This document shows, piece by piece, positions 1 to 35,588 of a DNA stretch of 44,869 nucleotides. Every line of letters starts with the position of its first letter. Position 1 is the first letter of the stretch. The position numbers were made by a program, and so were the translations under genes. The notes under the pieces are model-generated. The model was not told the origin of the DNA and did no database searches. It saw only the letters and a list, made by a program, of their open reading frames with translations. This DNA comes from Eremomyces bilateralis CBS 781.70 (Eukaryota): NCBI GenBank assembly GCA_010015585.1, contig ML975168.1; one strand, 5' to 3'.

Positions 1-1420
1 AACATCATCCCCAAGTGGAACGAGTTGGTCTTCCAGAACCAATGGCAGGACGCTCTCAACCGCCTTCTCATGACGAACAACTTCCCGGAGTTCACTGGCC
101 GCGTCTGCCCGGCGCCCTGCGAGGGTGCCTGCGTCCTCGGCATCAACGAGGACCCCGTCGGTATCAAGTCGATCGAGTGCGCCATCATCGACCGTGGCTT
201 CGAGATGGGCTGGATGGCCCCGAAGCCGCCCAAGGTCCGCTCCGGCAAGACCGTCGCCATCATCGGATCCGGTCCCGCCGGCTTGGCGACTGCCGATCAA
301 CTCAACCGTGCCGGCCACACCGTCACCGTTTACGAGCGTTCTGACCGTGTCGGTGGTCTGCTGATGTACGGCATCCCCAACATGAAGCTCGACAAGGGCG
401 TCGTGCAGCGTCGCGTGGACCTTATGGCCGCTGAAGGCGTGAAGTTCGTCACCGGCTGCTCCGTTGGCGAAGGCGACGTGACACTCGCATCGCTCCGCGC
501 AAGCAACGACGCCGTCGTTCTTGCAACCGGCGCCACTGTCGCGCGTGACTTGCCGATTCCCAACCGCAACCTCGAGGGCATCCACTTCGCGATGGAGTTC
601 CTGCACAAGAACACCAAATCGCTGCTTGACTCAAGCCTGGAGGATGGAACATATATCTCTGCGAAGGACAAACACGTCGTCGTCATCGGCGGCGGTGACA
701 CCGGCAACGACTGCATCGGCACGTCCGTCCGCCACGGCGCGCGGTCCGTCACGAACTTCGAGCTGCTGCCGCAGCCGCCTCCAGAGCGGGCGCCTGATAA
801 CCCGTGGCCGCAGTGGCCCCGCATCTACCGCATCGACTACGGCCACACGGAGGTCAAGACGCACATGGGCAAGGACCCGCGCGAGTATTGTGTGATGAGC
901 AAGGAGTTCGTGGACGACGGGAGCGGAAAGGTGAAGGGGATTAACACAATCCGGGTGGAGTGGACGAAGAGCGCGACGGGCGGATGGGACATGAAGCAGA
1001 TAGAGGGGAGTGAGCAGTTCTTCCCGGCCGACTTGGTGCTGTTGTCGATGGGCTTCTTGGGTCCGGAAGACCGCGTGCTGGGTGGTGAGATCGAGAAGGA
1101 TGCGAGGAAGAACGTGAAGACGCCGGCGGGTCACTATAACACCAACCTTGCGGGCGTGTTTGCGGCGGGCGATTGCAGGAGAGGGCAATCGTTGATCGTT
1201 TGGTAAGTTGACCTTCCTCATCATCATCGTTCGCCCGGAAACCATATACTGACTCGGTAACAGGGGTATCAATGAAGGTCGCATGGCCGCTCGCGACGTC
1301 GACTCCTACCTCACTGGCGTCGGCACTCAACTCCCCGTCACCGGCGGCATCGTCAAGCGCGCACCATTCGAGCTCCTATCCAAAACCGGCGCAGAGGAGC
1401 TGATCACCGCGGCCGCATAA
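1..1420 (+). CDS. GLT1: NADH-dependent glutamate synthase (GOGAT), 3' part (beta-subunit-like region); the gene starts upstream of the window
   Basis: Motifs [39 protein letters not shown] and [14 protein letters not shown]. Intron 1203-1263 (GTAAGT..CAG) restores W-GINEGR. Stop TAA at 1418-1420. Confidence 0.96.
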
Positions 1421-3130: not shown

Positions 3131-5557
3131 ATGGCGAGTACCGGAGATCTCGTTCGCACATTCGAAACGTTATTGCGAGGCGATGTCGCGATAGTTGGCG
3201 GCAAGAACTCCTCTCTCGGGGAGATGATCAGCGCCCTCGCAGCAAAAGGGATCGATGTACCCACTGGCTTTGCAACGACATCAGCTGCGTACTGGCGCTT
3301 TGTCGATGCCAACAATATCCGGCAAAAAATATCCGACCTCATCTCGGAATGGCAATCGGGAAAGAGCCAGCTTGCGGAAACTGGTCAGGCCATAAGGAAG
3401 TTGTTCCTACGTGGTGACTGGCCAGAGGATACGGCAACTGCCATCAAGAATGCCTACTGTCAGCTTTCAGCCAGTGCTGGAATCGAGAATTTAAGCGTCG
3501 CCGTACGTTCCAGCGCAACAGCAGAAGATTTACCCGATGCAAGTTTTGCCGGTCAACAGGAAACATTCTTAAATATTTCAGGCGAAGCGGCATTGTTGAC
3601 CGCCTGTCGGCGCTGTTATGCTTCACTGTTCACCGATAGGGCCATCAGCTATCGTCAGAACAAGGGGTTCGACCATATGATCGTTGCACTTTCGATCGGA
3701 GTCCAGAGGATGGTTCGCTCTGATCGGGGAGGTTCCGGGGTAATGTTCTCCATCGACACGGAGAGTGGCTTCGACAAGGTGGTGCTCATCAACGCAGCCT
3801 ACGGACTCGGGGAAACGGTCGTGCAAGGCGCGGTCAATCCCGATGAATACCAGATCTACAAGCCACTTCTTAACGATCTCAAACTGGTTCCAGTCATTGA
3901 GAAGAAAAGGGGAGAAAAGCAGATCAAGATGGTATATGGTGGGGAAGATATGCCAACCCGTACTGTGCCGACCTCGAAAGCAGAGCGAGCCTCGTATGTG
4001 CTCAACGATGAAGAGATTCTTCAGCTAGCACGGTGGGCTTGCATCATCGAACAACACTATGGTTGCCCGATGGACATGGAATGGGCTAAGGATGGAATCA
4101 CAGATGAACTATTCATCGTCCAAGCCCGGCCAGAGACTGTCCATTCATGTGGAGATGCAGCTACTTTCAAAACCTATAACGTCGGCAAGAGAGGCACAAT
4201 ATTGACGAAAGGGCTTTCAGTCGGTGAAGCCGCCGTATCTGGTCGCCTGTGCCTCATTGAAAACGCTCGAGACATAAGCAAATTTGTCGACGGCTCGATA
4301 TTGGTGACGGAAACGACTGATCCGGACTGGGTGCCAATCATGAAACGGGCCGCGGCCATTATTACAGACCACGGCGGGCGAACTTCACATGCCGCAATTG
4401 TCAGTCGAGAACTGGGTGTGCCGGCGGTGGTTGGGACGGGCAATGGTACCTATGTGCTACATTCCGGCGAGGATGTAACAGTCTCTTGTGCTGAAGGTGA
4501 CGTCGGCTTCGTTTACGATGGCATCTCGGAAATCAAAACTAAAACCGTGGATCTAACGGGATTGCCTCCGACTCGGACCCATGTCATGCTCAATCTCGCG
4601 AATCCCGCCGCCGCATATCGCTGGTGGAAATTACCCGTCGACGGCATCGGCCTTGCCCGCATGGAATTCGTGGTCACCAACGCGATCCAAGTGCATCCCA
4701 TGGCTCTCGTGCATTTCGACCTGTTGAAGGACCAAAGAGCCCGGAAAGCGGTCGAGAAGCTCACCATCGGCTACGACAACAAGCCTGAATACTTCGTCGA
4801 CAAGCTATCGCGTGGGTTCGCAGCGCTGTGCGCCGCTGTCTATCCCAAGCCGGCCGTCATCCGTATGAGCGACTTCAAGACAAACGAATACGCAAACCTC
4901 ATCGGCGGCGAACAGTTCGAGCCGAAGGAAGAAAACCCAATGCTCGGTTTCCGTGGTGCCTCGAGATACTACTCCCCCCGCTATAAGGAAGGTTTCGCCC
5001 TTGAATGCCAAGCGATCCGCCGTCTCCGCGACAAGATGGGCTTCACCAACGCCATCGTGATGATCCCCTTCTGTCGAACGGTCGGTGAAGCGGAGAAGGT
5101 GCTGGAAGTGATGGCGGAAAACGGGCTGACTCGGGGAGAGAACGGGTTGAAAGTCTACGTCATGTGCGAGATCCCCTCCAATGTCATCCTCGCCGACCGC
5201 TTCATGGAGAAATTCGACGGGTTCTCCATCGGCTCGAATGACTTGACCCAGCTGACCCTCGGCGTGGACCGCGACTCGGGCGAGCTAGCGGATCTATTCG
5301 ACGAGCAGGACGAGGCCGTCCGGTGGATGATCTCGACGGTGATCGCGCAGACGCGGAAGACGGGGAACAAAATTGGGCTATGCGGACAGGCGCCGAGCAA
5401 CCACCCGCAGTTCGCGCGGTTCTTGGTGGAGTGCGGGATTAACTACATCTCGGTCAGCCCAGACAGCTTCGTCGCTGTCAAACAGCATGTGATCGTTGCC
5501 GAATCAAACAAGGCAAGGTTGGGGAGCGACGCATCTGCTACACCGTCGTTTTTATGA
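3131..5557 (+). CDS. ppsA: Phosphoenolpyruvate synthase (pyruvate, water dikinase), intronless, bacterial-type
   Basis: VGGKNSSLGEM, AVRSSATAEDLPDASFAGQQET, phospho-His motif GGRTSHAAIVSRELG, EENPMLGFRGASRY, FSIGSNDLTQ and GLCGQAP. First ATG at 3131; single 808-codon exon. Confidence 0.95.
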   Translation: MASTGDLVRTFETLLRGDVAIVGGKNSSLGEMISALAAKGIDVPTGFATTSAAYWRFVDANNIRQKISDLISEWQSGKSQLAETGQAIRKLFLRGDWPEDTATAIKNAYCQLSASAGIENLSVAVRSSATAEDLPDASFAGQQETFLNISGEAALLTACRRCYASLFTDRAISYRQNKGFDHMIVALSIGVQRMVRSDRGGSGVMFSIDTESGFDKVVLINAAYGLGETVVQGAVNPDEYQIYKPLLNDLKLVPVIEKKRGEKQIKMVYGGEDMPTRTVPTSKAERASYVLNDEEILQLARWACIIEQHYGCPMDMEWAKDGITDELFIVQARPETVHSCGDAATFKTYNVGKRGTILTKGLSVGEAAVSGRLCLIENARDISKFVDGSILVTETTDPDWVPIMKRAAAIITDHGGRTSHAAIVSRELGVPAVVGTGNGTYVLHSGEDVTVSCAEGDVGFVYDGISEIKTKTVDLTGLPPTRTHVMLNLANPAAAYRWWKLPVDGIGLARMEFVVTNAIQVHPMALVHFDLLKDQRARKAVEKLTIGYDNKPEYFVDKLSRGFAALCAAVYPKPAVIRMSDFKTNEYANLIGGEQFEPKEENPMLGFRGASRYYSPRYKEGFALECQAIRRLRDKMGFTNAIVMIPFCRTVGEAEKVLEVMAENGLTRGENGLKVYVMCEIPSNVILADRFMEKFDGFSIGSNDLTQLTLGVDRDSGELADLFDEQDEAVRWMISTVIAQTRKTGNKIGLCGQAPSNHPQFARFLVECGINYISVSPDSFVAVKQHVIVAESNKARLGSDASATPSFL

Positions 5558-6150
5558 ATAACTCTGGCTTAGGGAACCGTGATGACGGGATAGGCGAGCT
5601 CTTCGGTTTGCATGGGGTGAGGGTGGAGAAGGGAGCAGTCTCGGTTGATGCGTTATCCATATGTGCGCTTGTAAGCCTCGAGTTCGGGTTTGGCGCATGG
5701 AGGGCAGAATATCATTTACTTTTATCATTGAATGCGAAATATTCTACATTTTCAGCAGTTTTCAACCTCATTCCGGGAATAACGCGAATTCGAAAGACTG
5801 CCTTCTGTGGTATTACCCCTGAATGCAGTCATCATGCGAAATGGCACGGTCCCTAGCTACAACAACGCCTGTTTCCTATAGTACGGCTTCTTGAGTCTGT
5901 TCCCAATTTATCATTGGCTACCTTAGGACATAGAGCCGTGAGGCCAAAGGGGCACTGACAGCCTTTAAGTAGCGAGCCACTAAACCAAGCGAGCAAAATG
6001 TATCATTCCATCCCCCGGGACTTCCCATCACTGATTAAACGCTTCAATAAGCAAAAGAGTGCCTCTGTTCACACTGTTACCGATACCCCTGGAGATTTTC
6101 TTAAATCACAAGTATTTTACTAGAACCGCTCAAATGTCTGCATTAGCTCC

Positions 6151-7196
6151 TCACAACTCGCCTCTAACCTGCTCAATCTCGACCTTCAGCGCCTTCGCGG
6201 TCTCTTCCAACGTCTTTTTCTCCTCCTCATTCAATTCCACCGGAATCGTCCTAATTGCCCCTTTCCTCCCCAGCACCACCGGCAAACTCACGCAGCACCC
6301 CAGATCCGGCTGAAACGTCGTGAGCGGCCGAACATCTCGTTTGTCGTTCAGTATCGACGAGCAAATACTCGCCACGATCGCGCCGATGCCGAAGCTGATC
6401 GTCCCTTTCGCTTGGATGATCGTCCGGGCGACGTGCTTGCACTGGTCGGCGAGCTCGATGCGGTCGATGGTGTCAATAGGCAGCGCCTTGTCGATGGGGA
6501 CGCCGCCAAAGGTCGCGGCGGACCAGGCGATAAATTGAGTTTCGCCTTGCACGCCCAGGACGTAGATGCCTATTGAATTTGCTTTGGCCTTGAGTACTGT
6601 TAGCCGGGATTTAGTGTTGCGATGATAAAAGGTGGTGGACGCACGCCAGCCTTGTCGGCCAACAATCCGCGCAGTCGGACGGAATCGAGGAAGGTCCCTG
6701 ATCCTATGACCTGGGACCTTGGGAGTCCTGAGACCCCTAGTGCAATGGTGGTAAGTACGTCGACTGGGTTCGCTACCACAAGTAGGATCGTGTCATGTCT
6801 GAAATGTGGTTTCATCGCATGGATGACGGACTTTAGAGTTGAAATGTTCCTGTACTCGAGTTCAACTGAAGTATGGCCTAGATACGCATGTTAGCTGTTG
6901 TTCTTGGATAGGGAAATGAACTGAACTATCTGTATAGACTTACCTACGTTCTGCTTCGATCCCGCAGTGATGATCACGATGTCACACTCTCCAGCCTCGT
7001 GATATGTGGCGGATCGTATTCGCGAGCTGCTCTTAGTAGAATACGCAGCATCACTAAGATCATGAGCCTGGCCATCTCTTCGATCTGTCTTGATATCAAC
7101 TAGAAGTATCTCGTTCGCAACGGAACCCAAGAGTAGGGCATATGCTGCCGTAGCGCCAACAGTCCCGGCACCCACAATTGCAATTCGCGTTATCAT
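6151..7196 (-). CDS. L-lactate/malate dehydrogenase-family protein with substituted catalytic residues (exons 7196-6944, 6877-6645, 6588-6151; 307 aa)
   Basis: Rossmann motif IAIVGAGTVG, plus IITAGSKQ, VVANPVD, GSGTFLDSVRLR, KGTISFGIG and SLPVVLGRKG. Two GT-AG introns join in frame. The GESR loop reads GHTS and GEHG reads GVQG. Confidence 0.88.
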
Positions 7197-9220
7197 ATTT
7201 GTTTTGAAACCGTTTGAACGGAATTATTCCTTTCATATTTCTAGATGATTTCCGAAGACCCCTCTCCTTTTATCATGTTTGTTGTTCCTAGCCACCGGTG
7301 GCATGATTATATTGGTACCGCACGAAAGGCGCCGGCCCGAAGCGGAAGTGTGGAACGCTGGATATCGGACGTCCAAACCGATCATACGATCTTAACTTGC
7401 ATAGACTTTAAAAACCAACGAGGTTATCACCAGACATCTGATGCCTTGCAAAACGATGTGGTAAAGTCATTCCCAAGGTCTAGAGTTTAGACCTTTGGGA
7501 ACGTCCATGTTGGAGAGTTGGGTGGGTCTGTCGAGGTTCGTCGTCATCAGTCATCGCCTTCTAACTTTGAACCTGCAGTATCCCAAATGCGTCATCACCA
7601 TTCCGACTGCGTCGGTCAATTTTCAATTCCGGGAATATATATATATCAAGAGATATGAAGCTTTTGCATTTGATAAGGCGCTCGAAGACACATGAATGCA
7701 GTCCAAGCTACTTAGAGTAGTTGAAGGATAGGATAATTAGCAGAGTCCATGACTCCAGGTGCATTTTCTAAGCTAGCATGAGTAACAGCTATAGCGATTC
7801 CCGTTCATCAAAGCTGATCAAACTTTCTTCGCAGCCATCATCAGAAAAGCCACGCCGAATTCGAGTTACGATCCTAAGGTCGTAGCCATTAAATCTGGAA
7901 TTAGACCGCATACGATTTGCCCCCCTTTCTTGATATATCCTTCAACTACTCCTCCAGACCACGAAACTCCTCTTCCAGCTCACTAGGGGTAGCACCCCGC
8001 ACGCAAACGTCGAAGTCGATGAGGGTTGCTTCACCATCGTTTGGGCTTCTCTACGGTAGGCATTGTTGCATAATCCGCGATAGAAAGGTGTAGGTGAGGT
8101 TGAGTCTTGTTGAATAGGACTCAGCGTGATGAGTAAACGCCCCATCTTGGGGAGTTAGGATAGGCCTTCATGCATCAAGGGTTTGTAGGAACTGTCTTGA
8201 AGAACGATCTATTGGTCGACTGGACTCTTGGGCTGATGAGCCTGTGGTGATCCTGCAGCTCCCTTGAGTGCTGGTCATAGATAGGTGAGCAGCATACTCT
8301 CAACCTTTAGTATTGGCCAGGTTTTTACTCCAGCATAGATGCTGATGAATGTTCGCACCAACGGAGGTCTCGCCTGTGAGAACAGAGCTCAGCTACGCTG
8401 AGTGTCCCTGCACCCAATGAAATGGAAAGAACAGGCACATCTGCCCCGCTCAAACGAAGTGAACTCAAGTGAACGAAGTATCTTCTAACAGAGAAGGAAA
8501 CACTGAAAGAAGATAACGAGGTGAAATCCCAGAGAGGCAATGCTCGGGGGTTGGCACCCCATTCACTTCGCTCATCCCCCGGCCATCCATAATCATAATA
8601 AGGAGGGGAGGGCTTGAGAAAAGAGGCAAGGACGTCGTTAAGGTAATGATACAGGCGGAAAACAACGACATCATCAGAGAGATACTCACATCCATCAAGC
8701 TAATGCCTGAGACCGTAGTATTCACTCGTATCTATGCACATTTACATAATAAGGATTATGCTGTGATATGCAACAAGGACCAACCAGACGGGGGACAACC
8801 GTGGAAACGAACCTGGTGAGCGCGAAAGCATTGCAAATAGACCGTGCGAATGCTGTGTGCAGGAAAGTACCTGGGACCAGGATCGTGAGAATGTGATCGT
8901 GGAAGAGAATTGTGACGACCACTCTCCCGAGAACCTGCCTCCTGTAGTAAGAACTAGATATCGCCAAAGACGATCTAGAATAATATGGATTTCCTTCCTA
9001 CTGTGGTAAATAAGGAGAAAACAAAAGGAACCATACCATCTGTGTATATATCGTGTTTACAGCCCAGCGCATAGTTGATGCGCCATGCGGGGGATTGGAA
9101 TTCTGCCTTGGTGCTGATGATGGGAGGCCATCGCGCACACAGCCTGCTCTTCGTAGAACCAAATCTTTTCGTATTGTATGTAGCGGTCCCAGTCTTTGTC
9201 TTTCCTGAACATTTTACCAA

Positions 9221-9787: not shown

Positions 9788-12275
9788 ATGGCAGATCCAT
9801 TCTCTCTCGTTGCCAGCCTGATCGCCCTGGGTACAGCGGTTGGGGCCGCCTCAAAAGCTATCCCGAAGGCCCTCGACTTAAAATAAGCGCCTCGGCGTCT
9901 GATTGACATCCAGCATAAGGTCTGTCAATACGGTTTTCACTCCCCTAGACGCAAATTTCGACTCACAAGCTGCGCAGATTGAGGATCTAAAGGTGGTGTT
10001 GCGAACCGTCAAGCGAATTGCCAAGGACGCATCCATAGATGCGGACGACGACGCTATCCTTCGTTTCCAGCAACTCTTTATCCGAGAAAAAGAAGCTGTT
10101 GAAGAGACCAATGACCTCGTCAAACCCAGACTCGTAAAAAACCCAGAAAGTCTTGGGGAAGCCCGGCTCACGACAAAAGTTCGGAAGATCAAATTCCTCA
10201 GGGAGGAAAAACACTTGGAAGAGCTAAATGCGCGGCTGTCTGATATTATTCAAGGCTTCAGTACCGCCCTCCAATGTATTACGGCGTAAGATACGGGAAG
10301 TTTCATATTACTAGCTGAGCTACACTAACCAGTCGTAGTTTGGAACTGCTGAGCCTGAGAGTTACTCACGGAGCTCTTCAGTTCGGCATCACCCAACTGA
10401 TCGAGTCTGATCGAGTCACTGACCAAGGGGAGAGCTCAAGAGTTCATGAGATCCCCGATACAAGCGACACGTTATCTGTTCTTGATGATGAATCCACAGT
10501 TGAGAATACCGCTAACGAGACCCTTGCGAGGGTGGAAGTGATGATTACAGAAGAAGAACTACTGAACCTCTGCAGCTGTTCATGCCATACTTACTACGCG
10601 GCTAAAGTGCCGAACTGGCTCGGTGATGCGATCGGAACACTCCTAGTAAGATGGTATCGAAACCCACAAACATGCTCGACATGCTCTCGGAAAGACTGCA
10701 GTAGGGTCATAAGAGAAAAAATGTTGTGCGTTCAATACTACTTCCCACATTGGATGATACGACGCTTGATTGAATTCAAGGCCGCCTGGAATGCAGCTCA
10801 ACAACTATCCGTCTCTCTCTCAACGACTAGAATGATACCAGAAGGTTCAAGTATCTTTCAGTTCGCTCAACACAACAACGTGGATGGTGTTAGGAGGTTA
10901 TTTATCCAACGGACAGCTTCGCCTTTCGATATCAGTATTAATGGAAGAACGCCGTTACATGTAAGCCATTATCTAGTAGCCAGATAAAGCGCCACGATCA
11001 CGCTAACAGGATTACCTTAGTTTGCAGCAACTGCGGTGAAGGCCGATATGATCAAATTCCTTTTAGATGCAGGAGGTATACCTGATGCTGAAGATAGCAA
11101 TCACTTGTACGACTACTCACCCTGTCCACCCAAGTTCATTCTGCTAACACCAAAACAGAACACCCCATGATATCATCTGGGAATTATATCTACGAAACCC
11201 AAAAGAGCGCGGGTACATCCTCGAAGCTGCAGGCCTGTCGCCTAGTGACACGTCCACTAGCCTCGAAAAGCAACAGTTTACGGGCGTACATCGCATCGTC
11301 CTCGGTTTGCGAGGCCTGGTGGACTTGGATGATTATCTTAAACTCTCAGCTACTGAGATCGACAAGCAAGACTTGACTGGGAAGACTGCACTTGCCTGGG
11401 CTGCTTCACGGAAAGGAGACTCACGTCTAGTACGCATTTTGCTGGATCATAACGCATCGGTACGAATAGCCGACTATCGATATAAGACGCCGCTACATTA
11501 CGCTGCAAAGAGCGAGGATCCCAATTCAGTGGCGTTAATCTTAGAGGCCATCAAGCAAATTGAACGAATGGTCACAGACCCGAGAGGCCGCGGCATTGAA
11601 GCGGGCGACGATAAGAACCGTACACCCCTCAATTATGCAACGCGGATGAATCTCTTGCCTCACACCCAACTCCTGATTGACTACGGCGCGGACCTGGAAG
11701 CGACGGGATCAAAAACAAAGCGAACAATTCTCCTCAATGCCTTGTACTGGAATAGTCATTTGGTGCTTCCGGTTCTCTTACAGCACGGGGCGAGAACAGA
11801 CGTTACCGATGCGGCCGGGGCCACTGTTTTACACCACATCACGCAATTTTGTAGTCTAGAAACAGTACAAGTTCTAGCGAAGCAGGATCTTGGATACATC
11901 AACCGCAACGCTGTCGATTCTACTGGACGTACCGCAGTGGATGTATTCAATTCCGAAGACGTGAGATGCAGTCCTGACAAAGAAAAAGAAAGGAGTCTTG
12001 CGGCAGAGGCTTTTGCTGCTATCTTGGCAAAGGCTAGTCGTCCTCGCAGTGGGACGAGTAGTGATTTTGGCCTAAAGCTGCAAAACGTCTTTGAAATAAA
12101 GGAGATCAACGTTCTCGAGCGTGAAGAAGATTCTGATGATGAGAAAACCTTACATGACGAGAAGGGGGTGCGGAAAGCCGAGGCCACAGAAGATGGCTGG
12201 TTCGATGCAGATGATGACGATGATATCTTCTACGATGCGCTTCAGGAGCTTCCTACAGATCATGTTGTAATTTAA
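9788..12275 (+). pseudogene. Fungal N-terminal HeLo-like domain plus ankyrin-repeat protein with one in-frame premature stop (exons 9788-9919, 9978-10285, 10339-10960, 11021-11106, 11159-12275)
   Basis: Starts MADPFSLVASLIAL, typical of HeLo-like N-termini. Ankyrin motifs GRTPLH, GKTALAWAA, KTPLHYAA, RTPLNYA and GATVLH. The five exons sum to 755 codons. TAA at 9884-9886 (codon 33). Confidence 0.75.
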
Positions 12276-13401: not shown

Positions 13402-14451
13402 ATGATGCGAAGCGATCTGGAAATCGTGAAAGAGTGCGACAAGTACGTGTGACTGGCTTCGGCTCGCTCTATACCGCATCAACCCTTCTAAGCTGCCATA
13501 ACTGACATCTCACCGCTCCCTTGCAGCTTCCCCTACTACGAAGTGGGCAGTGCCGATGCTTTTGCCTCAGCTATAGAGCCGCTGTGGCTGTTCTATCTGC
13601 CAGATGATCCGGAGCCACATGGTTTCCTGATTGATTCGGTCGTGAAGCGCATGCCTTGGACAGCCAAATTCCGCATCGATCTCTCCCCGCGCAAGGAGGT
13701 GCATCTTCTAAAACCGGAAGGCAATGATGACTGGCAAGCTGCCTGCGCCGACGCCATTGATGAGCTGCTCGATCTCGCGCGCGCAGAGAACGCCTTTCCC
13801 CACCTTGGCAAGAAGCGTGATGAGCAGTTCCCCATCATTGGCGCAAATTTTGACATTGGCATTGAGCGCTCGGCTATGAGTCTTTTTGGCATTGTCGGCC
13901 GCGGCGCGCACATGACGGTGTTCACGCGTACGAATGAGGGCATTAAATTTTGGGTCCCGCGCCGCAACGCAAACAAGTCGACATGGCCCAACATGCTAGA
14001 CCAAGCCGTTGCAGGTGGCGTGGGGCGCGGCGAGACCCCGTTCGAGTGTATTGTCCGCGAGGCGGACGAAGAGGCTGCCTTGCCCAATGAGCTGGTGCGG
14101 CAAAACATCGTGGCAGCTGGCACGGTGACCTGGTTCAACATCTCTGACGAGAAGGCCGGGGGTGAACTAGGGCTGATGAACCCCGGCGTGTTGTACGTCT
14201 ATGACCTCGAGGTTGGCGAGGACATGGTCTTTAAACCGGTCGACAATGACATCCAAAGCTTCCACTTGATGAGCGTGGACGAGGTCAGGCATGCCATGGG
14301 AAGCGGCGAATTCAAGCCCAGTTGCGCAGCCGTCATGATAGATTTCCTTATAAGACACGGATTCATCACTGCTGACAAGGAAAAAGACTATGTTGAGATT
14401 ATTTCGAGGTTGCATCGCAAGCTTCCCTTCAGGACAAGCCCCGGATACTGA
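13402..14451 (+). CDS. Nudix hydrolase, thiamine-pyrophosphokinase-related (YJR142W/tnr3 N-terminal-like family); exons 13402-13442 and 13527-14451
   Basis: ECDNFPY across the intron, IERSAMSLFGI, WVPRRNANKSTWPNMLDQAVAGG, Nudix box READEEAAL, LYVYDL, GEFKP and SRLHR. Confidence 0.9.
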
Positions 14452-16926: not shown

Positions 16927-18191
16927 ATGGCACCCTCAGTAATTGTGGCACCCGCAGTGACGGAACAGGATGTTCCAATCGTTACCAAAGGCAGAGCGCA
17001 GCCGTTGGTATCGTCAGGCCTCCTTGATCAATTCGAGCAATTCGATGTAACCCCAGTCATCGGCACGGAGTTCTCAAGTGCCAAACTGGTCGAGTGGATT
17101 AATGCTCCAAATGCAGATGAACTCTTGAAGGAGTTGGCCATCAAAAGAAAGCACCCTATACCAATACAGGCGTGCTCTAGACTAACGGACTCGCAGTCTC
17201 CCAGCGCGGTGTCGTTTTCTTCCGTGCCCAAGACGACCTTACGAACGATATTCAGAAGGCATTGGTTCAGCGACTCGGCGAACTGACGGGAAAGCCAAAA
17301 ACTTCGGGCCTACACATTCACCCGATCTTAAACTCTAGCCGGGAGCTTGGAGGATCCGATCCGGAGATCAGCGCAATCAACTCTGTCCAGCGCAAGAAGC
17401 TTTACGGCACCGCTGCAGGTGAAGAACCTACTGCAAAGCCGCAGAGCGCTGCACGGTGGCACTCGGATATCGCGTTCGAGCCAGTCCCCGCTGATTATTC
17501 CTCACTTCGACTTATTAACCTACCCAGGACAGGAGGAGGTAGGTAGAACCAAGATCATCGCTAGTGGCGCTAACAGACATTATTAGACACCCTCTGGGCA
17601 TCCGGATACGAGCTCTACGACCGTATCAGCGAACCATACCAGAAGTTCCTTGAGGGTCTCACGGGAACCTTCGCTCAGCCGGGATTTAGCGCCACTGCAG
17701 CTCGCGGTAACTTCGAGCTCTATGAGAAGCCCCGCGGTGCACCCGAAAACGTTGGTAGCGCGATGAAAGCAGTGCATCCCGTTGTGAGGACCAACCCTGT
17801 GACCGGTTGGAAGAGCCTTTTTCCCGTTGGTGGCCATATCCAGTATATCAATGGCGTAACGGAAGAAGAGTCCGAGGCTCTCCTGAGCTGGTTCTTAGAC
17901 TTGGTATACAAGAACCACGACCTGCAGCTCCGCTTCAAATGGAAGAACTCGAACGATATCGGTAAGCATCCCTTCGTCCCAGAGGAGTTAAGGCTCAGAG
18001 CTGACATATGACTAGCAATCTGGGACAACAGAAGCACCTTTCACAGAGCAACCTACGACCATGACGGTCAGGGTGAGCGCTTGGGTAACCGAGCGGTAGG
18101 ATTGGGTGAGCGACCGTACTTTGACCCCAATAGCAAGTCACGCAGGGAAGCTCTGCGCGAGCATGCTCCTGGTGAGAAGATTGTGGTATGA
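16927..18191 (+). CDS. TauD/TfdA-family alpha-ketoglutarate-dependent (sulfonate) dioxygenase; exons 16927-17146, 17197-17538, 17587-17961, 18016-18191; intron 1 donor is non-canonical, so it may be a pseudogene
   Basis: DVTPVIGTEF, SQRGVVFFRAQ, Fe ligands WHSD, GGDTLWASGY, HPVVRTNPVTGWKSLF, AIWDNRSTFH and GERPYFDP. Exons total 371 codons. Confidence 0.88.
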
Positions 18192-22341: not shown

Positions 22342-24733
22342 CTAATCCGTGATGCGCCAGGATTGGAACCACTTCAGATGCTTCCACTGCGCACTATCTC
22401 CCTCCATCCCAAAGCAAATCGCCCTAAACAGATAGAACAACCCGACCACCGCGACGTACAGTGGGAAATACACCACCCACTGCCACTTGGCCAGCCGCCA
22501 CGTCGCCCAATCGACGCAGAACCCGGCGGTAAGGATCGCAAACCAGAGCGCGGGGTAGTAGTGATGGACGTAGGTGACGCGGCCCATGATCATGAAGGGG
22601 AGGTAGTGGAGGAACCAGCCGATGACCGGGTAGAGGCCGGCGTAGTGGATGTGGTCCATTTCGCGCTGGGAGAGCTCTTTGTAGCCGCGCTGCCAGCGGA
22701 TGACGTACCAAGCGACGAGGAGGCCGAAGATGCCGAGACTAGCAGTGCTGCCCCAGTAGACGAGCGGGTTGCCGAGGAGGAAGTATTTGACGACTAGGAA
22801 CAGGATTAGAGGAGCGAAAAAGAAAAGAATGAAGGGAGGGGCTTACTATGACTATCCCAACCACACATCCGGAGACCAACTCCGAGGATCGGCCATTTCC
22901 AGAACATTGACGCAAGATCATCTTGCTTGTCTGGATCGGGGACCAGCGCGTTGTTCGACGTCATCATCGCCACGTTCAAATGGACAAAGTCGCGGAAGAA
23001 CGGAGACTTATATGACCCCGGATCGCCCGCCGGCAACCTCTCGTTGACGTGCGACTCAATATTCCAGTGCGTGAACACATCTCGGGGCTTATTCTCCTTC
23101 ACACAGGTAGTTTCGATTTGCTTGAAACCCCACTGCGGCAGGTTGACATTGCCTGCGCGGAGATAGCAGCCCAGGTCGACATGCTTCAGACGGAACGCGG
23201 TGGTGAGCGTCCGGATCTTGGTGTAGTCCCTCGACGACGCATCATCGACGACTTCGATTTTCCAGTGATCCTTGGTGTCACCGATAGTGGTGTTGCCGTA
23301 GCACGAGACTTCCCAATCGGCCTTCGTAACGGGCGCAGCAACGGTATGCGAGTGCAGGTTACGGCCTGTCTGCGCGTGGATCAGGCGGATGATGTCGTTG
23401 TTGCCGATGAACTTGATCTCGGCTTCCTGGTCGTATTCGGGTTCGTGGCGGTTGGGGTAGAAGAACCAGTCATTGTTGGCGTCCTTGTGGTGGTAGCAGG
23501 TGACCTGCTGCTGGGAAGAGCCCTCAGGATAAGTCTGGACATGAGAATGGAGGAGACCACCACCGTAGCCCATATTCTTGAGCGTGGCGCGAGAACCGAT
23601 GGCGACTTCGAGCGGGCTATCTTTTCCGACTTCGGTGCCCCGGAGGTTGGCTTGGAAGAGGGAGCTCATTTGAGCATCGCCCGGCCCGCTGTTCTCAAGG
23701 ACGAGGAAGTGGATGTAAAAGGAGAACATGTAGACCATCGTGGGGATGAGGATCAGGCCGAAAACCCGGAACCCAAGATGCGCCGCGAACTCGACTTTGG
23801 GCATCTTGGTATCCCCGAACTTGTTCCATAGGTCCTCGATGGTATATAGGCCAACCAACGCGGTGCAGAAAAACCCAACCCATTTCACACTGCAGACACA
23901 GCCGATCGACACGCCGGTCAGCATCAACCACAGGCCCCACTCCGGGCTGAACGGGTCACGCCGATATTGATGGAACTTCGCCCAGCACAGGACCGTCGTG
24001 AACGTGAAGAACAGCAGCATCGAGTCCAGTAAGATAAACCTGCTGATCGTCGTGTACGAGTTCTCACATAGAACTGCCAGCGTGACGAGCCAGACGGTTG
24101 CGCGTCGGAAGTTCAGCGCCTTGGCAGTGTAATAGGCGAGAGGAACGCAGAGGGCTCCGAACGTGGCGTTGAAGAGTCGCATGAACGTGTAGTTGACTTC
24201 TTCGGGGTACGTCTCGCCGGATTTGAATTCGAAGGAACCGTTGTAGCCGGCCATGTAGCCAGAGAGACCAACAAGCATCTTGCCAAGCGGGGGATGTACG
24301 TCGAAGTAGAATTCGCGTTTGAGGTAATGTGAGCCGAACTTCCCGAAACTAGAAGGAGAGCCATATCGTCAGTCTCATTGTTATATAGAATTGATATCCG
24401 GGGACAACGTACTGTGCCTCGTCCCACGTCACGATGGGTGAAAGACCAATCTTCCACATCCGCGTAAAGAACGCAAAACCGGTGAATATCAGCGGAGCAA
24501 TCAGGAACTCCCACTCATCGAGGAACCGTAGGATGCTAAAGCCCTGTGTAATTCCATTAGCGTCCGCGATCTCATATCTCCAGATGGTGCCATACCTGCT
24601 GTTTCGATTTCTCCTCCTCCTTACGGTCTACCACCGCGGTGGCATGCTGTGACGCACCTCCCACCTGTCGTCTCCGCAACTCATTATCTGCGCCAGCCGC
24701 GCCGCTCGTGTAAGCTTGCGAGCTCGACGCCAT
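22342..24733 (-). CDS. PMT2: Dolichyl-phosphate-mannose:protein O-mannosyltransferase, PMT2 subfamily (multi-exon)
   Basis: VTWDEAH/FGKFGSHYLKREFYFDVHPPLGKML, SRFILLDSML, MIR domains (LLHSHVQTYPEGSSQQQVTCY, NLHSH) and MGRVTYVHHYYPAL. ATG at 24733. Confidence 0.93.
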
Positions 24734-25560: not shown

Positions 25561-27592
25561 CTAATCTCTACTCCCGCCTCCCCCTCCGCCATCCTCCTCA
25601 TCGCCATCATCCTGCTTCACCTTACTGTACTTCCCACTCCCTGAATCCCCCTCCCCACTCCCCTTCGCCCTCTTCACAATGCTACTAATCCAGCCTCCCA
25701 CCCCCTCCTGCTCCACGCTGCCCGCCTGCGGCTTCCCCCGGCCGCCCTCAACGTCCACCGGCGGATCGATGTTCAGCCCGGGGATCGCGTTGTCGGCGGA
25801 GAAAGCCGCGGGGCCGCGGCGCAGGTCGATGCTCGGCACGGGCGAGCGGTTGCCGGAGAAGAGGGATTCGGCTTCGGCGATGGTTTCGGGGGTCGGCATG
25901 ACGGAGGTGGCGTCGCCAAAGAGGACGTTCATGTCCTCGAGGCGGATGTTGGCGGTTTCGGGGTAGATGAACCAGACTGAGATAGATGTTAGCCACACTA
26001 GTACTCTCAAAGGCGGCCCGAAAATCGACGGAGCGAGGGAAGACTTACCAATGACGAAACTGAGAGCGCAGAAAAATGCATGCACAAGATAAAGCCGCCA
26101 CTGGATCAGCTCCTGCAATACCGGCGTCATCATGCCCACCAACCAATTGAACGCCCAATTTGTTGCCGTGCTCAGACTCGCGCCCTTGGCTCGGATGCTG
26201 AGCGGCAGGATCTCCGGGGGGTACAACCACGGGATCGGGCCCCAGGACGCGCCGAACGCGGCGTTATAGATCATGACGAAGACGACGACCAGACTGGCCG
26301 TGTTATCGATGTCGATGAAGATGAAGTAAGAGACCGCGGAGAGCGAGAGCATCATCGCGACGGCGCCGGTGAGGAGAATGGGTCGTCGTCCGTACTTGTC
26401 GACGATGTACCATGGAGGGATTGTGGAGAGGAGGTATGTTATGCCGTTGATACCGGTCATGAGAATCGCATCACGGCCCTGCCAGCCGGCCTGCTCGAAG
26501 ACGAGAGGGGCGTAGTAGGAAATGACGTTGATGCCGTTCAGTTGGGCGAGGGCTTGTGCGGACATGGCGATGAACACGCGCTTGTAGTACCGCTTGAACA
26601 TGTCACCGTAGGAGCGCTCGCCTTCCTGGCGCTCCATGAGAACGTTCATCTTGATTTCACGGTAGTTTTCGCGGGCTTTCGGGTTGTGGATGTCACCCTT
26701 GCCGTAGAGGTTGGCGATGACGACAATGCCTTCTTCGTCATGGTCGTTGTCGAGAAGCCAGCTAGAGTGGGTTGTTAGTGGCAAGAGTTAAAGGAAGCAA
26801 ACATACGGTAGCAAGGACTATGCCAGAAAGGAACAAAGGAGCTACTCACCGAGGCGACTCGAGAATTAGAAAACTCCCCAACCCAAGCAACGTGCCCAGG
26901 AAGACCTGCATGAACAACGGTATCCGCCATGACAAATCGCTATGAATGAAGCTGCAAAAGTAATCCACCCAGACACTTGCACAATACCCCGTGATGTTCC
27001 CGGTGAACTCGATGCACGCCAGCTTCCCTCGATTATGCGGCGGCGAGATCTCGGATTGGTAGATGGGAACGATGGTGCTCAGCATGCCGACGCCGAACCC
27101 GGCAAGGATCCGGCCGACCATCATCATCGGCATGCCGTTGGCGAACGCCTGGAGTGCGCCGCCAACCACGAAGACGATGGAGCCGTAGAGGATGGTTTTT
27201 CGGCGGCCGATGATGTCGCCGACACGGCCGACCATGAGAGAGGAGATGAAGGCGCCAACTTCAAGGATGGCGACCATGGTGCCGATTTCGGCTCGCGAGG
27301 GTTGGTTGAAGTAGTCTTTGAAATATCCGCCGCTGCATAACGGTCAGTATAGCATAAATGAAAGGGGGGTGGAAGACAATCATACGTGATAATGCCCGAC
27401 ATAACGCCCTGATCATATCCGAATAAAAACACACCCAATGATACAAAGACGCTCGTAAAATAACTGCAATTGGCATAGCCGTCAGCATCTCTTCATTCCC
27501 AAACCCATCCTAGGTGTGTTGTCAATCAATCCTTACATCAACTTCTTCCCATGCAGCCCATGGAGCCTCGACGGCCCATCTCTCGGCGACAT
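25561..27592 (-). CDS. MFS sugar porter (monosaccharide transporter), multi-exon; the 5' end may extend to ~28264
   Basis: LFGYDQGVMSG, GDIIGRRK, VPIYQSEISPPHNRG, ESPRW, QLNGINVISYY, DKYGRRP, WGPIPWLYPPEILPLSIRAKG and YPET motifs. First in-frame ATG is at 27592. Confidence 0.9.
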
Positions 27593-29178: not shown

Positions 29179-31355
29179 TCAAATAATCCGTATCGTGTAC
29201 TCATTAGATCCATCGAAATCTTCGTGGTATCGCTCATCAAATGCCGTGTCAGGTGCGAATGCGGCCTCAACGGTAGTCCGATAAAAGAAAAACACACCAA
29301 TTTTCTTGTAGGTCCCCTTCATAGATTTTTCGGGGGCGAGGACCAGCCCTTCAAACGTCGAAGATCCTTCTATTTCACTAGGATAATATATAACAGGCAT
29401 GAAGAAGACCTCTTCCGCGTGCCAGATGTTGGGAATGCAAGGATTCACTAGTATATCAAGCGGAGGTGCATCCGGATGAGGTCCGCCGCGTTGCCGGAGT
29501 CTCAGAGGAGCCGGCCCAGAATCCGGACTTGAGGAACGCTCTTCGTTCTCCAGCGAAAAGCACTTGTTGTCGAGATCACCCTTTGGAACTGATGCGAGGC
29601 GCACCTGTCTAAGGAGCCCACGAATCCGAAGATGACCTCCTTTCAGCTGGCCAGTCAAATCCTGAGAGACGGGCACCGTGATGACATCTAGTATCCGGGA
29701 TATGGCACTCCAAGTCCCGTATCGCCGTCGAAGAAAGTAGATTCTTCCATCCACGGAAGCCCAGGACCAGGTAGGAGCTCGATAAGTTGATGACGGCTCC
29801 CCATCGTCATGGATGTACCAAAGAAGTTCGCAATGCAGATCCCTTCTCCACATTCCGGCAAGGTATTCGTCTTTAAGTCGAGGGACAAAGGACTTTGCAA
29901 GCCCGGAAAGCGCAGGAAACTTGTCAGTTGAATAAGTTAGGCTAGCATTACTGTACATTTCAACAATTCGGCACCATGCATCGTAGAAATGTTCCTGGGG
30001 CACAGACAATAGGTTAGAAGACATGGCGTAGAATGATGGATACTGAAAATGTACTTACAGTCGGAATGGTAAATGATAAGTCTAATAATGAAGCATATAC
30101 TGGGTTCATAGCACCAGATGGCCATTGCGAGTCCATGACTGTATCAGGGCACGACTTTGGAAAAAGCTCTGATGATAGCTTTGAGCGACACTCCCAGTAC
30201 ATTTGCCTTCTAGCAAAGTGAAGAATTCGTGGAGCCTGGCCAATACTAAGCTAGCTGTAGCGTGGTCTTCATAGGCAGCTTACCATAATCTGTTCCTGAT
30301 AGACCCAGGCACGTTGGTGTAAAGGTGCTTGAAGAACATCAGTGCCGTATTCTTCCAGTATTATCATGGCTCGCTTGGGAGGTATAGGTCCGACAGAAAC
30401 CCGCGCGAAGTCTGCCTCCGGAGGCTGGATGTCTCTGATATCACTGGAGAGGAGGAGGCCTTCTTTCCCATCTGAAAACCCAGAAGCGGCTAGGTTGCAG
30501 ACACCGTTTCCGTAGACTAGATGCATAGTAAGGCTCTCTTTGAGCCAGTCCAACGAGCCTGGCTCCTGCTGGATAATACAGAGGGAATCAATCCAGAGGT
30601 ACTTATAGCCTAGACCAACCGTAATGCGCATGGCGTCGGCAAAAATCGGCGACAGGGAGGCAATCGGAATTGATTGAACCATTTGGTCATGATTGTCTCT
30701 GGTTAACACAAAGAACGGCGTCTTCCCCCAGCAATGACTTAGGGTAAGGTAATGTGTCTCAGAATTCAGATCGGAACCATAGCAAAGTCGAGCGGCAAAT
30801 ATAGAGCCGCTTTTTCTGACTTCTACTAGGCGCGTCGGCAGCCAGTGATCTGGTACTCTCGAACAGGCCTTATGCTCGCTGAGACAGCACGAAAGCCACT
30901 GTCTAGCCTGGTCCAAGGTACGCGGCCTACTAGTGCTCGTTGGGAGATCGAAGGTTGCCATGTCCTTCTTAACACCTTGTGGAGTGTAAGTCTTACTCGA
31001 GAGAAATGGGTGTTATCTTACTTTGGCTTGGTAGAGCACGGAACGGCAGGGTCTTCATCCACCTTTTCGACTGATAAACATAAAACGCGACGTAAATCTG
31101 CCCAGGAGTTTTGTCCAGATTTGCAATGTAGCATTGGGTGTTGAATGAGCATTGCGCCTCAGAATCCTTCTTCATGTAGCACAAGGCTTCCATTAGACGA
31201 AGACAGATATAACATTTCTCATTCGCCGAAGCCTCGAGGCTAGATATGTCCACATGATGGTCGAAGAACGGAAGCACCTTGTTCGGCTTGACATAATCCT
31301 CCTTGAAAAGAGACCTGCAAATCCAGCAAAGATAGGATGTGCTGTTCTGGTTCAT
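29179..31355 (-). CDS. HET (heterokaryon incompatibility) domain protein; exons 31355-31022, 30975-30284, 30235-30059, 29994-29179 (672 aa)
   Basis: WLSCCLSEHKAC, LPTRLV, YLTLSHCWG, YLWIDSLCIIQ, MHLVYGNGVCNLAA, PLHQRAWVYQE, YWEC, LTYSTDKFPALSGLA, YLAGMW and RAPTWSWAS. Confidence 0.92.
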
Positions 31356-34074: not shown

Positions 34075-34894
34075 CTACCTGCTGATGATCGTCCACCAAT
34101 TGTCTTTCTCATAACCACTCTCCAGTACCTTCCCGCCTGCTTCGACGGCTTCCTCTTCCAACTCGCCTTTCCTGTAGAGATGATAGTACCGATTAAACGT
34201 CTTCTCCGTCTCCTTTTCTCCCACATCCGCCTCGCCACTCCCTCTTCCCTGATCGCGACTCCGATCCTTCCGCTTCCTCGTAACCCATGGCACCATTACA
34301 TCCTGCTCATCCCCCTCCCCCCACCCCCTCCGACTACTCTCCTGCTCCAATGCCCACACCACAACCAACCCCCTCCCTCCCTCCCGCAAACAACTTAACA
34401 CACTCTCAATCGCCGCAACTCTCCTCTCCCTCGTCGAAAAATGATGCACCACCGCCACCGAGATCGCGAAATCGAACCGGCCGTCGGTATACGGTAGGCG
34501 CAGTCCGTCGGCGACGGAGACTTCCTGACGCGGGTAGTTCGACGCGGCGATGGCAGCGAGGTTGGCGGAGCGGTCGGAGGCGAGGATGAAGAGGGAGGGG
34601 TTGGAGGAGAGGTATTTTCCGTTGCCGCAGCCGACGTCGAGGCCGATGGAGCCGGGGGGGAGTGAGAGGAGGAAGGAGTGGGGGGTGGGCCAGGGCTGGG
34701 AGGGGTTAGTGGCTGTTTTGGAATTTTTATACTTAATAGAAAGATGATGGGAGGGTTTTGGGAAGGAAAAAACCGCGTGATAGTGCCGGAATACTCACTT
34801 TATATCTGGTTGATGAGAAGTGCTCGGCTATCTGTTCGTAGACATCATGGACATGCTCTTGCTCGTACGACTCGTCATTTTCACCCCCAGGCAT
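34075..34894 (-). CDS. TRM9: tRNA (carboxymethyluridine(34)-5-O)-methyltransferase; exons 34894-34799 and 34695-34075
   Basis: YEQEHVHDVYEQIAEHFSSTRYK/PWP, GLDVGCGNGKY, AVVHHFSTRERR, VWALEQ, QDVMVPW, RYYHLY and YEKDNWW. Confidence 0.93.
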
Positions 34895-35588
34895 ATCTCT
34901 TTATCTCGATGTGCTGAATTATATTTTGAAGCTGGGCAATAATGGATTGGTTCTGTTCAAAAGTGAGATCAACAGTGCAGCTGTTCAGGGTTTGGCCACA
35001 ACGGTACAAGTGTTGGACGTCATGACAAGAAAAATTATATATTAAGCATCGGAGTTACGTCGTGCCACTGGGTGTAAATTTCAGGTTATTAGAAGGCTTC
35101 AATTTCATGGCGTGAAGGTTAGATATAATTTTATATCGCATCAAACCTGAAAAGTTACCATAATATCAAAGTGCTGATATCAAGGGAACGACCGCACAGC
35201 CACAGCCAAACTACTACGTAAACATCATGAGATGACATTGGAAATTCAATAACCCTTTGGCTTTATCTCCGTAACCAAGCTTAATCCCTTCCTCAACCCA
35301 TTTAGCCGTACCAACTCAACCCTCGGAAGGACTACCGGCATCATTCAGAGGTCTTGATCACCATGCAACGGCTTGGATAGTGTCGAATTAGGAGTTGTAA
35401 GCATTCCTCGACATTAAAATGCGCTTCTAAAATGGAGACTTAGGCTTAGGGGCGGGGGGAATATAATATATGATATCTACGGCATCCAGTCCACATCTGT
35501 AACTGGCCAATATCCGTAAACAATAAACATCGCAGTTGATGACTCTTTCAAGGTTCCATAGTCTACCGACCAATGGCGCGATATCAAC

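Follow-up and report, generated by a model that had tools for sequence, protein, structure and literature searches.

A lactate dehydrogenase-like protein of Eremomyces bilateralis without Arg109 and His195, encoded beside a PEP synthase gene, is a candidate pseudoenzyme

Introduction

Classical L-lactate dehydrogenases (L-LDHs) depend, in the dogfish numbering used throughout this work, on His195 as the proton donor, on Arg109 of the mobile loop, which polarises the substrate carbonyl, and on the substrate-binding residue Thr246. Here we describe a lactate dehydrogenase (LDH)-like gene of the dothideomycete fungus Eremomyces bilateralis CBS 781.70 whose product carries other residues at all three positions. 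The gene occupies positions 7196..6151, on the minus strand, of a 44,869-nucleotide stretch of contig ML975168.1 (assembly GCA_010015585.1), hereafter referred to as the window, and its neighbour is a gene for phosphoenolpyruvate (PEP) synthase. We favour, at a probability of about one half, the reading that the product is a non-classical LDH derivative that is maintained, is probably non-catalytic, and would work together with PEP synthase.

The closest described protein is An04g08220 of Aspergillus niger, a putative ldhA product (Dave & Punekar 2015, PLoS One; PMC4684279), and a literature search that covered journals available without subscription found fungal LDH-like proteins lacking the catalytic histidine treated in that paper only. 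According to the passages of it available to us, the sites of An04g08220 that bind reduced nicotinamide adenine dinucleotide (NADH) are conserved and the signature histidine is replaced by arginine. The protein showed no LDH activity, whether over-expressed in A. niger or expressed in Escherichia coli, an Arg174His revertant was likewise inactive, and An04g08220 was inactive on L-lactate, D/L-lactate and ethanol with either NAD+ or NADP+. The same passages report the catalytic histidine to be missing in A. fumigatus too, where the residue at this position is glutamine in our own alignment. Like the window protein, An04g08220 combines the LDH fold and a length of about 308 residues with retained NADH motifs and a replaced catalytic histidine (VGVRDSES), and its relatives P0154 and P0283 share with the window protein a clade that lacks Arg109. 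The two proteins differ in that A. niger has arginine at position 195 and belongs to a long-branch lineage, whereas the Eremomyces protein has Gln195, evolves slowly, has retained Gln102, and falls outside the clade of 63 rows marked by Val194 in our tree. The available passages on A. niger mention neither a clade-wide loss of Arg109, nor recurrent loss of the histidine, nor a PEP synthase neighbour.

Canonical L-LDHs, represented here by the Lactobacillus casei enzyme (structures 2zqy and 2zqz) and the Tothia fuscella protein P0010, contain the same two Pfam domains as the window protein, which matches 2zqz with a template-modelling (TM) score of 0.91 at 35% identity. The GxGxxG motif, Asp53, Gln102, Asn140, Asp168 and Arg171 are common to both, whereas the window protein departs from the canonical form in four exchanges (Arg109 to Ser, Glu194 to Val, His195 to Gln and Thr246 to Ile), in scoring below the cut-off of the L-LDH family model TIGR01771, and in being linked to PEP synthase, to which the canonical LDH of Lomentospora is unlinked. 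A further point of comparison is duck epsilon-crystallin, which the accessible part of a pseudoenzyme review cites as LDH-B4 (PMC10211241). There too the LDH fold has been kept for a role beyond the turnover of lactate and pyruvate, but the crystallin is an active enzyme that moonlights with all of its catalytic residues, whereas in the fungal protein catalytic residues are gone.

Results and discussion

Residue equivalences were taken from a phmmer search against the PDB, in which the top match was chain 2zqy_A, the L-LDH of Lactobacillus casei (E = 5.3e-53). The stretch 'itagskqnvghts' of the window protein aligns without gaps to 'ITAGAPQKPGETR' of 2zqy_A, and 'yvlgvqgetqf' aligns, also without gaps, to 'YIMGEHGDTEF'. 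In the first of these alignments Ser88 (codon TCA, 6867..6869, minus strand) stands opposite the arginine of 'GETR', which is the Arg109 position, and in the second Gln176 (codon CAA, 6547..6549, minus strand) stands opposite the histidine of 'GEHGD', which is the His195 position. Val175 occupies the Glu194 position, and Ile226 (codon ATC, 6397..6399, minus strand) the Thr246 position, at which all 27 canonical rows of the tree described below have threonine. The residues kept are Gln82 (Gln102), Asn121 (Asn140), Asp149 (Asp168) and Arg152 (Arg171, in the motif LDSVR), together with two motifs of the NAD site, GAGTVG at residues 9-14 and Asp34 (Asp53). Across the 97 tree rows Asp53 and Arg171 are invariant (97/97 each), while Asp168 is found in 94 and Asn140 in 90.

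A preliminary description of this locus, made from the DNA sequence, had claimed that Arg109 is replaced by serine (6869-6867) and His195 by glutamine (6549-6547) in an intact reading frame, with GxGxxG, the NAD-binding aspartate, Gln102, Asp168 and Arg171 retained. Both replacements, the retained residues and the open frame stand as described; what the description overlooked is the change of Thr246 to isoleucine. In the wider LDH family, sampled as 120 representatives of clusters at 50% identity, Arg109 and His195 occur together in 109 rows, and loss of these residues is therefore concentrated in one fungal group.

The mobile loop of the window protein also contains a histidine, His86 (codon 6875-6873), two residues before the Arg109 position. 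A histidine at this place was found only in proteins without His195, namely the window protein and P0028 and P0031 of the Trichoderma clade, and in none of the 107 His195-bearing proteins, which have glutamate, glutamine or glycine there. The three cases amount to only two independent events, and this peculiarity may bear on the question of an altered chemistry, to which we return below.

Both LDH domains of the window protein score above the Pfam gathering thresholds, Ldh_1_N (PF00056) with 106.9 bits against a threshold of 27 and Ldh_1_C (PF02866) with 79.4 bits against 22.6. An AlphaFold2 model built with 34 homologs reached a predicted local distance difference test (pLDDT) score of 89.7 and a predicted TM (pTM) score of 0.89, and its best Foldseek matches were bacterial and animal L-LDHs (TM 0.89-0.93, E-values down to 1e-30). 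By this model, the LDH fold, a Rossmann domain followed by an alpha/beta C-terminal domain, is predicted to be intact. The NCBIfam equivalog model for L-LDH (TIGR01771; EC 1.1.1.27) gave the window protein 260.1 bits, below its cut-off of 303.55; among the controls, the canonical fungal protein P0010 passed with 317.0 bits and P0005, from the divergent clade described below, failed with 273.2 bits. Taken together with Ser109, Gln195 and Ile246 and with the inactivity of the A. niger relative, this score bears out the earlier suggestion that classical LDH catalysis is unlikely, and the window protein is very probably not a classical LDH.

The gene consists of three exons on the minus strand, and its spliced product of 307 residues contains neither stops nor frameshifts. 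Exon 1 (6944..7196) begins with Met1, encoded by the ATG at 7196-7194, ends one base into the Gly85 codon, and includes GAGTVG, Asp34, the first part of the mobile loop (TAGSKQNV) and the Ldh_1_N match (E = 6.5e-18); its 3' end at 6944 is set by a joint in an RNA-derived contig. Exon 2 (6645..6877) extends from the rest of Gly85 to Gly162 and carries Ser88, Asn121, Asp149 and Arg152, with its joints likewise seen in the contig, and exon 3 (6151..6588) encodes Ala163 to Leu307 and the TGA stop (6153-6151), carrying Val175-Gln176, Ile226 and the Ldh_1_C match (E = 1.3e-16). The introns that separate them, intron 1 (6878..6943, minus strand, 66 nucleotides, GTAAGT...TAG) and intron 2 (6589..6644, minus strand, 56 nucleotides, GTGCGT...CTAAC...AAG), are both absent from the contig. 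The database protein P0004, annotated 'lactate dehydrogenase [Eremomyces bilateralis CBS 781.70]' and also 307 residues long, is 100% identical to exon 3 and contains the spliced motifs.

The contig in question, 2271 nucleotides long, belongs to the public run X1, which is stored as contigs and is labelled RNA by guess only, its intron-less contigs with canonical borders being what cDNA would give. It omits 56 nucleotides (6587/6588 to 6644/6645) and 66 nucleotides (6876/6877 to 6943/6944), both with CT..AC ends that correspond to GT..AG on the minus strand. Over the LDH-like stretch, the codon of Gln176 included, 0 base differences and 0 indels were reported, and both unusual codons are therefore not assembly errors. 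Contigs of lower depth in X1 also cover the introns and could stem from unspliced RNA or from DNA. The LDH-like gene is thus transcribed and correctly spliced: the contig removes exactly the two introns on which the preliminary description relied, and neither the observed joints nor the ungapped PDB alignment provides an alternative that restores the arginine or the histidine.

The same 2271-nucleotide contig extends past 7700 and also omits 7521..7577, a stretch of 57 nucleotides with GT..AG ends on the plus strand that lies upstream of the LDH-like ATG. No open reading frame (ORF) of at least 110 residues was found between about 7250 and 9850, and a divergent, spliced transcript that is non-coding or holds a short ORF may overlap the 5' end of the LDH-like gene.

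The family to which the protein belongs was represented by 130 proteins from two word-based searches, nearly all of them from Pezizomycotina, and the homolog nearest to the window protein, from Pseudogymnoascus australis, is 66% identical to it. At the His195 column these proteins have histidine in 107 cases, glutamine in 21, arginine in one and glutamate in one, and only 40 of the 130 have arginine at the Arg109 column. For a maximum-likelihood tree, 12 truncated or insert-bearing rows were dropped, the remainder was thinned at 88% identity, and the columns of the mobile loop and the histidine motif were taken out, which left 97 rows (91 from the family and, as the outgroup, six distant representatives). 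All 27 canonical rows carry Gln102, Arg109, Glu194 and His195. Nested in the fungal LDHs is a divergent clade of 70 rows (support 90/64, and 99 in a quick tree that kept the trait columns), in which Arg109 is present in only four rows and His195 in 57, and in which position 102 is mostly aromatic or histidine. The minimum number of changes within this clade is 25 at position 109, 25 at 102, 10 at 194 and nine at 195.

The window protein shares the traits of the clade, with Ser88 in place of Arg109 and valine (Val175) rather than glutamate at position 194. It falls not within the 63-row Val194 clade (100/99) but beside it as its sister (94/43; 88 in the quick tree), and its placement inside the divergent clade lacking Arg109 has moderate support overall. 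Forcing all 11 Gln195 rows, a group named after inspection of the tree, into one clade was rejected, the constrained tree being 217 log-likelihood units worse (approximately unbiased [AU] test, p = 1e-13). The tree thus indicates that the loss of Arg109 is clade-wide and old, and that the exchange of histidine for glutamine in Eremomyces was an event of its own, one of at least nine. The preliminary description had presented the gene as an isolated curiosity, a view that does not hold, given the clade-wide loss of Arg109, the recurrent loss of His195 and a phenomenon already published for Aspergillus. It had proposed to check whether the substitutions are clade-wide; that of Arg109 is, and that of His195 occurred lineage by lineage.

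Two proteins of Aspergillus section Nigri, P0154 and P0283, nest inside the Val194 clade beside section Flavi (Shimodaira-Hasegawa-like approximate likelihood ratio [SH-aLRT] support of 96 in the quick tree), and by this position the published negative result for A. niger would concern the same paralog clade as the window protein. That the Arg174His revertant stayed inactive is in keeping with the lack of Arg109 across the clade. Within section Nigri itself the residue at the His195 position varies, being arginine in A. heteromorphus (P0154) and glutamine in A. tubingensis (P0283). A scan for compensating residues over the nine His-less lineages found no column changed in more than five of the nine and none that is an evident catalytic substitute. 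A joint loss of Thr246 and His195 was also considered and dropped, with five to eight independent pairs giving a median p of 1 in a sign test.

Several measures argue that the window protein is being kept rather than eroded. Of 71 positions at which the canonical and divergent groups share a residue conserved to 90% or more, it matches 68, the three exceptions being an exchange of isoleucine for leucine, one of serine for threonine, and a one-residue insertion. Against the consensus of His-bearing sequences it differs at five of 85 conserved columns and at 98 of 222 variable columns, and its root-to-tip path of 0.54 compares with medians of 0.60 for canonical rows and 0.73 for His-bearing rows of the divergent clade. 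In three other lineages, each with Gln195 in all of its members, variation avoids the conserved columns: the Fumigati vary at 11 of 85 conserved columns versus 86 of 222 variable ones (p = 8.5e-6), Trichoderma at nine of 85 versus 61 of 222 (p = 0.0013), and Apiospora at three of 85 versus 29 of 222 (p = 0.012). Because of this pattern, the Gln195 forms of these lineages persist under purifying selection, and since all three stayed intact through speciation, loss of the histidine alone does not start decay in this family. Transcription and splicing, the 68 of 71 conserved positions and the short path also agree with the earlier remark that an intact gene speaks against simple decay, and we conclude that the window protein is probably maintained.

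The neighbouring gene (3131..5557, plus strand) is intronless and encodes a PEP synthase (pyruvate, water dikinase) of 808 residues with PPDK_N, PEP-utilizers and PEP-utilizers_C domains. This gene and the LDH-like gene converge, their stop codons lying 593 base pairs apart. The protein scores well above the cut-offs of two NCBIfam models, NF005057 (1115.5 bits, cut-off 598) and TIGR01418 (1086.1 bits, cut-off 739.75), and the database protein P0294 is identical to it at all 808 residues. Orthologs in fungi share 74-81% identity and come from Eurotio-, Sordario-, Dothideo- and Orbiliomycetes and from one yeast of Saccharomycotina (Trichomonascus). His420 and Cys751 are invariant in the PEP synthase alignment and presumably match the catalytic residues of E. 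coli PpsA. A contig of 7302 nucleotides in run X1 starts farther upstream, passes the end of the PEP synthase gene, and covers 5600..6336, its end at 6336 being 186 nucleotides into the 3' coding end of the LDH-like gene; the two convergent transcripts may overlap, a point on which a contig cannot prove a single transcript.

Adjacency of an LDH-like and a PEP synthase gene was found in 17 of the 18 species in which it could be checked, the window included. Consecutive locus tags are borne by the pair in A. terreus (ATERTT37_003769/003770), Fonsecaea monophora (AYO21_11682/11683), Chaetomium olivicolor (VTI74DRAFT_2022/2023), Exophiala xenobiotica (LTS15_011171/011170) and A. pseudonomiae (APSETT444_005016/005015). 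In A. nidulans, according to the accessible parts of two papers, ldhA is AN5842 (PMC4684279) and the PEP synthase gene pdkA is AN5843 (PMC3641053). Consecutive GenBank accessions on one contig were found in nine of ten further species, namely Chaetomium sp. MPI-SDFR-AT-0129, Triangularia, Dactylonectria, Truncatella, Achaetomium, A. nomiae, Cercophora, Mariannaea and Parachaetomium, while in the tenth, Cladorrhinum, the accessions are three apart. One species with this adjacency, Achaetomium, has a Gln195 protein. The canonical LDH of Lomentospora, the one canonical LDH checked, is not beside the PEP synthase gene of that species. The species with adjacent genes cover Eurotiomycetes, Sordariomycetes and Dothideomycetes as well as both sub-branches of the divergent clade, and because of this span the pairing looks as old as the clade itself. 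A search for fusions with PEP synthase among the LDH representatives, in the manner of a Rosetta-stone check, found none, and the literature search described above returned no paper tying His-less fungal LDH-like proteins to PEP synthase. The adjacency is a new element beyond the preliminary description and the best functional lead that we have; a functional tie between the window protein and PEP synthase is a tentative proposal, to which we give somewhat less than even odds.

The history that we favour would run as follows. A paralog clade found throughout Pezizomycotina would have arisen from canonical fungal L-LDH, lost the loop residue Arg109 early, exchanged Glu194 for valine, and stayed beside the gene for a bacterial-type PEP synthase. 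The positions of the mobile loop and the proton donor would then have been freed of constraint, and His195 would have given way to other residues on many separate occasions. The Eremomyces protein, despite Ser109, Gln195 and Ile246, would keep the Rossmann NAD site, Asp168, Arg171 and the fold; turnover of pyruvate and lactate is most likely gone, and the protein would survive through a role that does not depend on His195. Such a role may lie in binding NAD(H), a carboxylate ligand or both, with the protein acting together with PEP synthase or modulating it at the pyruvate/PEP node, either by sensing a ligand as its partner or regulator or through a dehydrogenase activity at this node that is altered or very weak. 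A more specific version, which we consider rather unlikely, is a conserved two-gene module of Pezizomycotina in which the bacterial-type PEP synthase is paired with a non-catalytic, LDH-derived partner or regulator that senses NAD(H) or pyruvate/lactate. If true, fungi would have in this partner a substitute for the PEP synthase regulatory protein of bacteria, one that would link gluconeogenic PEP formation to the redox state.

A number of points weigh against a maintained, non-catalytic partner of PEP synthase. With regard to the pairing, the species with the closest homolog, Pseudogymnoascus australis, is the exception, its tags (010261 and 010316) being 55 apart. The sample of adjacent genes is biased, as the ten species judged by accessions were preselected for equally long contigs of both proteins, and outside the window neighbour order was deduced from the numbering of tags or accessions. 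The accessible part of a microarray supplement on the gprD deletion in A. nidulans lists AN5843 as down-regulated and does not list AN5842, and so gives no sign of co-regulation (PMC3641053). With regard to the protein, the sister placement has support of only 94/43 and the 70-row clade, with the trait columns taken out, of 90/64. The isoleucine at the Thr246 position speaks for a changed substrate pocket, which weakens the suggestion of the preliminary description that a 2-oxo or hydroxy acid may be bound, and what failed to appear in A. niger is LDH activity only, a result that is silent on other roles. With regard to maintenance, the exchange of histidine for glutamine takes one base (CAY to CAA) and could be recent, with the measured conservation predating the loss. 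Root-to-tip paths are longer in His-less than in His-bearing rows (median 0.89 versus 0.73, Mann-Whitney p = 0.02, in rows that are not independent), and the long stem of section Nigri, with path lengths of about 1.6 to other members, suggests that constraint has relaxed in at least one of the His-less lineages.

These last points are shared by a rival account, in which the divergent clade would consist of weak but real 2-hydroxyacid dehydrogenases that feed pyruvate to PEP synthase, and in which the Eremomyces copy would have been disabled lately by the change of His195 to glutamine, together with that of Thr246 to isoleucine, with stops not yet accumulated. Such recent inactivation or early decay would be in keeping with the retention of His195 in most members of the clade (57 of 70 rows), with the single base needed for the change, with the absence of a close relative by which to date it, the nearest homolog being 66% identical, and with both the longer paths of His-less rows and the long branch of the His-less proteins of section Nigri, which decay predicts. 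Against it, the Eremomyces gene is transcribed and correctly spliced and its own path is short (0.54), while the three other Gln195 lineages have remained intact through speciation with variation that avoids conserved columns. An efficient ancestral LDH activity is moreover doubtful, given the clade-wide loss of Arg109 and, in the passages available to us, an inactive Arg174His revertant of A. niger (PMC4684279). We regard decay as unlikely.

We judge it just as improbable that the protein is still an enzyme, with an altered chemistry or substrate. Here hydride would be transferred to another 2-oxo acid or carbonyl with the aid of, for example, the loop residue His86, and the reaction would supply or remove the substrate of PEP synthase. 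The NAD-site motifs are indeed invariant or nearly so over the 97 rows, the mostly aromatic or histidine residues at position 102 in the clade suggest another substrate, loop His86 is confined to proteins without His195, and the gene is paired with that of a pyruvate-using enzyme. No position, however, is consistently changed over the nine His-less lineages, and the 25 changes each at positions 102 and 109 are better explained by a loss of constraint than by the gain of a defined new specificity; in the accessible passages, the A. niger member was also inactive on L-lactate, D/L-lactate and ethanol with NAD+ or NADP+ (PMC4684279). The remaining alternative, an artefact in which wrong splicing, a shifted alignment or a sequencing error mimics the loss of arginine and histidine, is refuted by the alignment to 2zqy_A, ungapped over both motifs, and by the RNA-derived contig, which uses the predicted junctions with 0 base differences and places both codons inside exons, and it retains a negligible chance given also the identical annotated protein of 307 residues and the 20 other family proteins with glutamine at the His195 column.

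LDH-like proteins of this kind had already been noticed in Aspergillus, and what is added here is the clade-wide picture and the PEP synthase partner. Hundreds of fungal proteins are annotated 'L-lactate dehydrogenase', and among them is a whole paralog clade without the catalytic arginine, many members of which also lack the histidine. Because of these losses, and because the one member tested proved inactive, models of metabolism and lactate-engineering projects built on such annotations are probably in error. The near-constant pairing with PEP synthase over three fungal classes offers a testable lead on the role of an LDH-fold pseudoenzyme and, equally, on how fungi control a bacterial-type PEP synthase, an enzyme barely studied in filamentous fungi. 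The repeated, independent loss of one catalytic residue under continued selection would also make this family a clean natural example of pseudoenzyme evolution.

Other observations in the window and the family

Upstream of the PEP synthase gene, an ORF at 1..1206 (plus strand, open at its 5' end) encodes Fer4_20 and Pyr_redox_2 domains of the type found in the glutamate synthase small subunit or in dihydropyrimidine dehydrogenase. On the other side of the LDH-like gene, Pfam matches identify an ankyrin-repeat protein (11148..12275), a NUDIX hydrolase (13492..14451), a TauD-type dioxygenase (17574..18011), a protein O-mannosyltransferase (22806..24368), a sugar transporter (25561..27343), a HET-domain protein (30269..31012), a methyltransferase (34075..34794) and a VTC/SPX polyphosphate-synthesis protein (35477..38173). 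The Pfam matches of the window genes gave no sign of a secondary-metabolite cluster.

Unusual architectures were seen in three of the LDH representatives (P0134, P0197 and P0145), comprising a protein of 720 residues with two LDH units, a protein of 491 residues in which LDH is fused to a winged-helix MarR domain, and a protein of 430 residues in which a match to a cNMP-binding domain, below the Pfam cut-off, precedes the LDH domains. Such architectures hint that LDH folds have been reused as ligand-sensing modules elsewhere.

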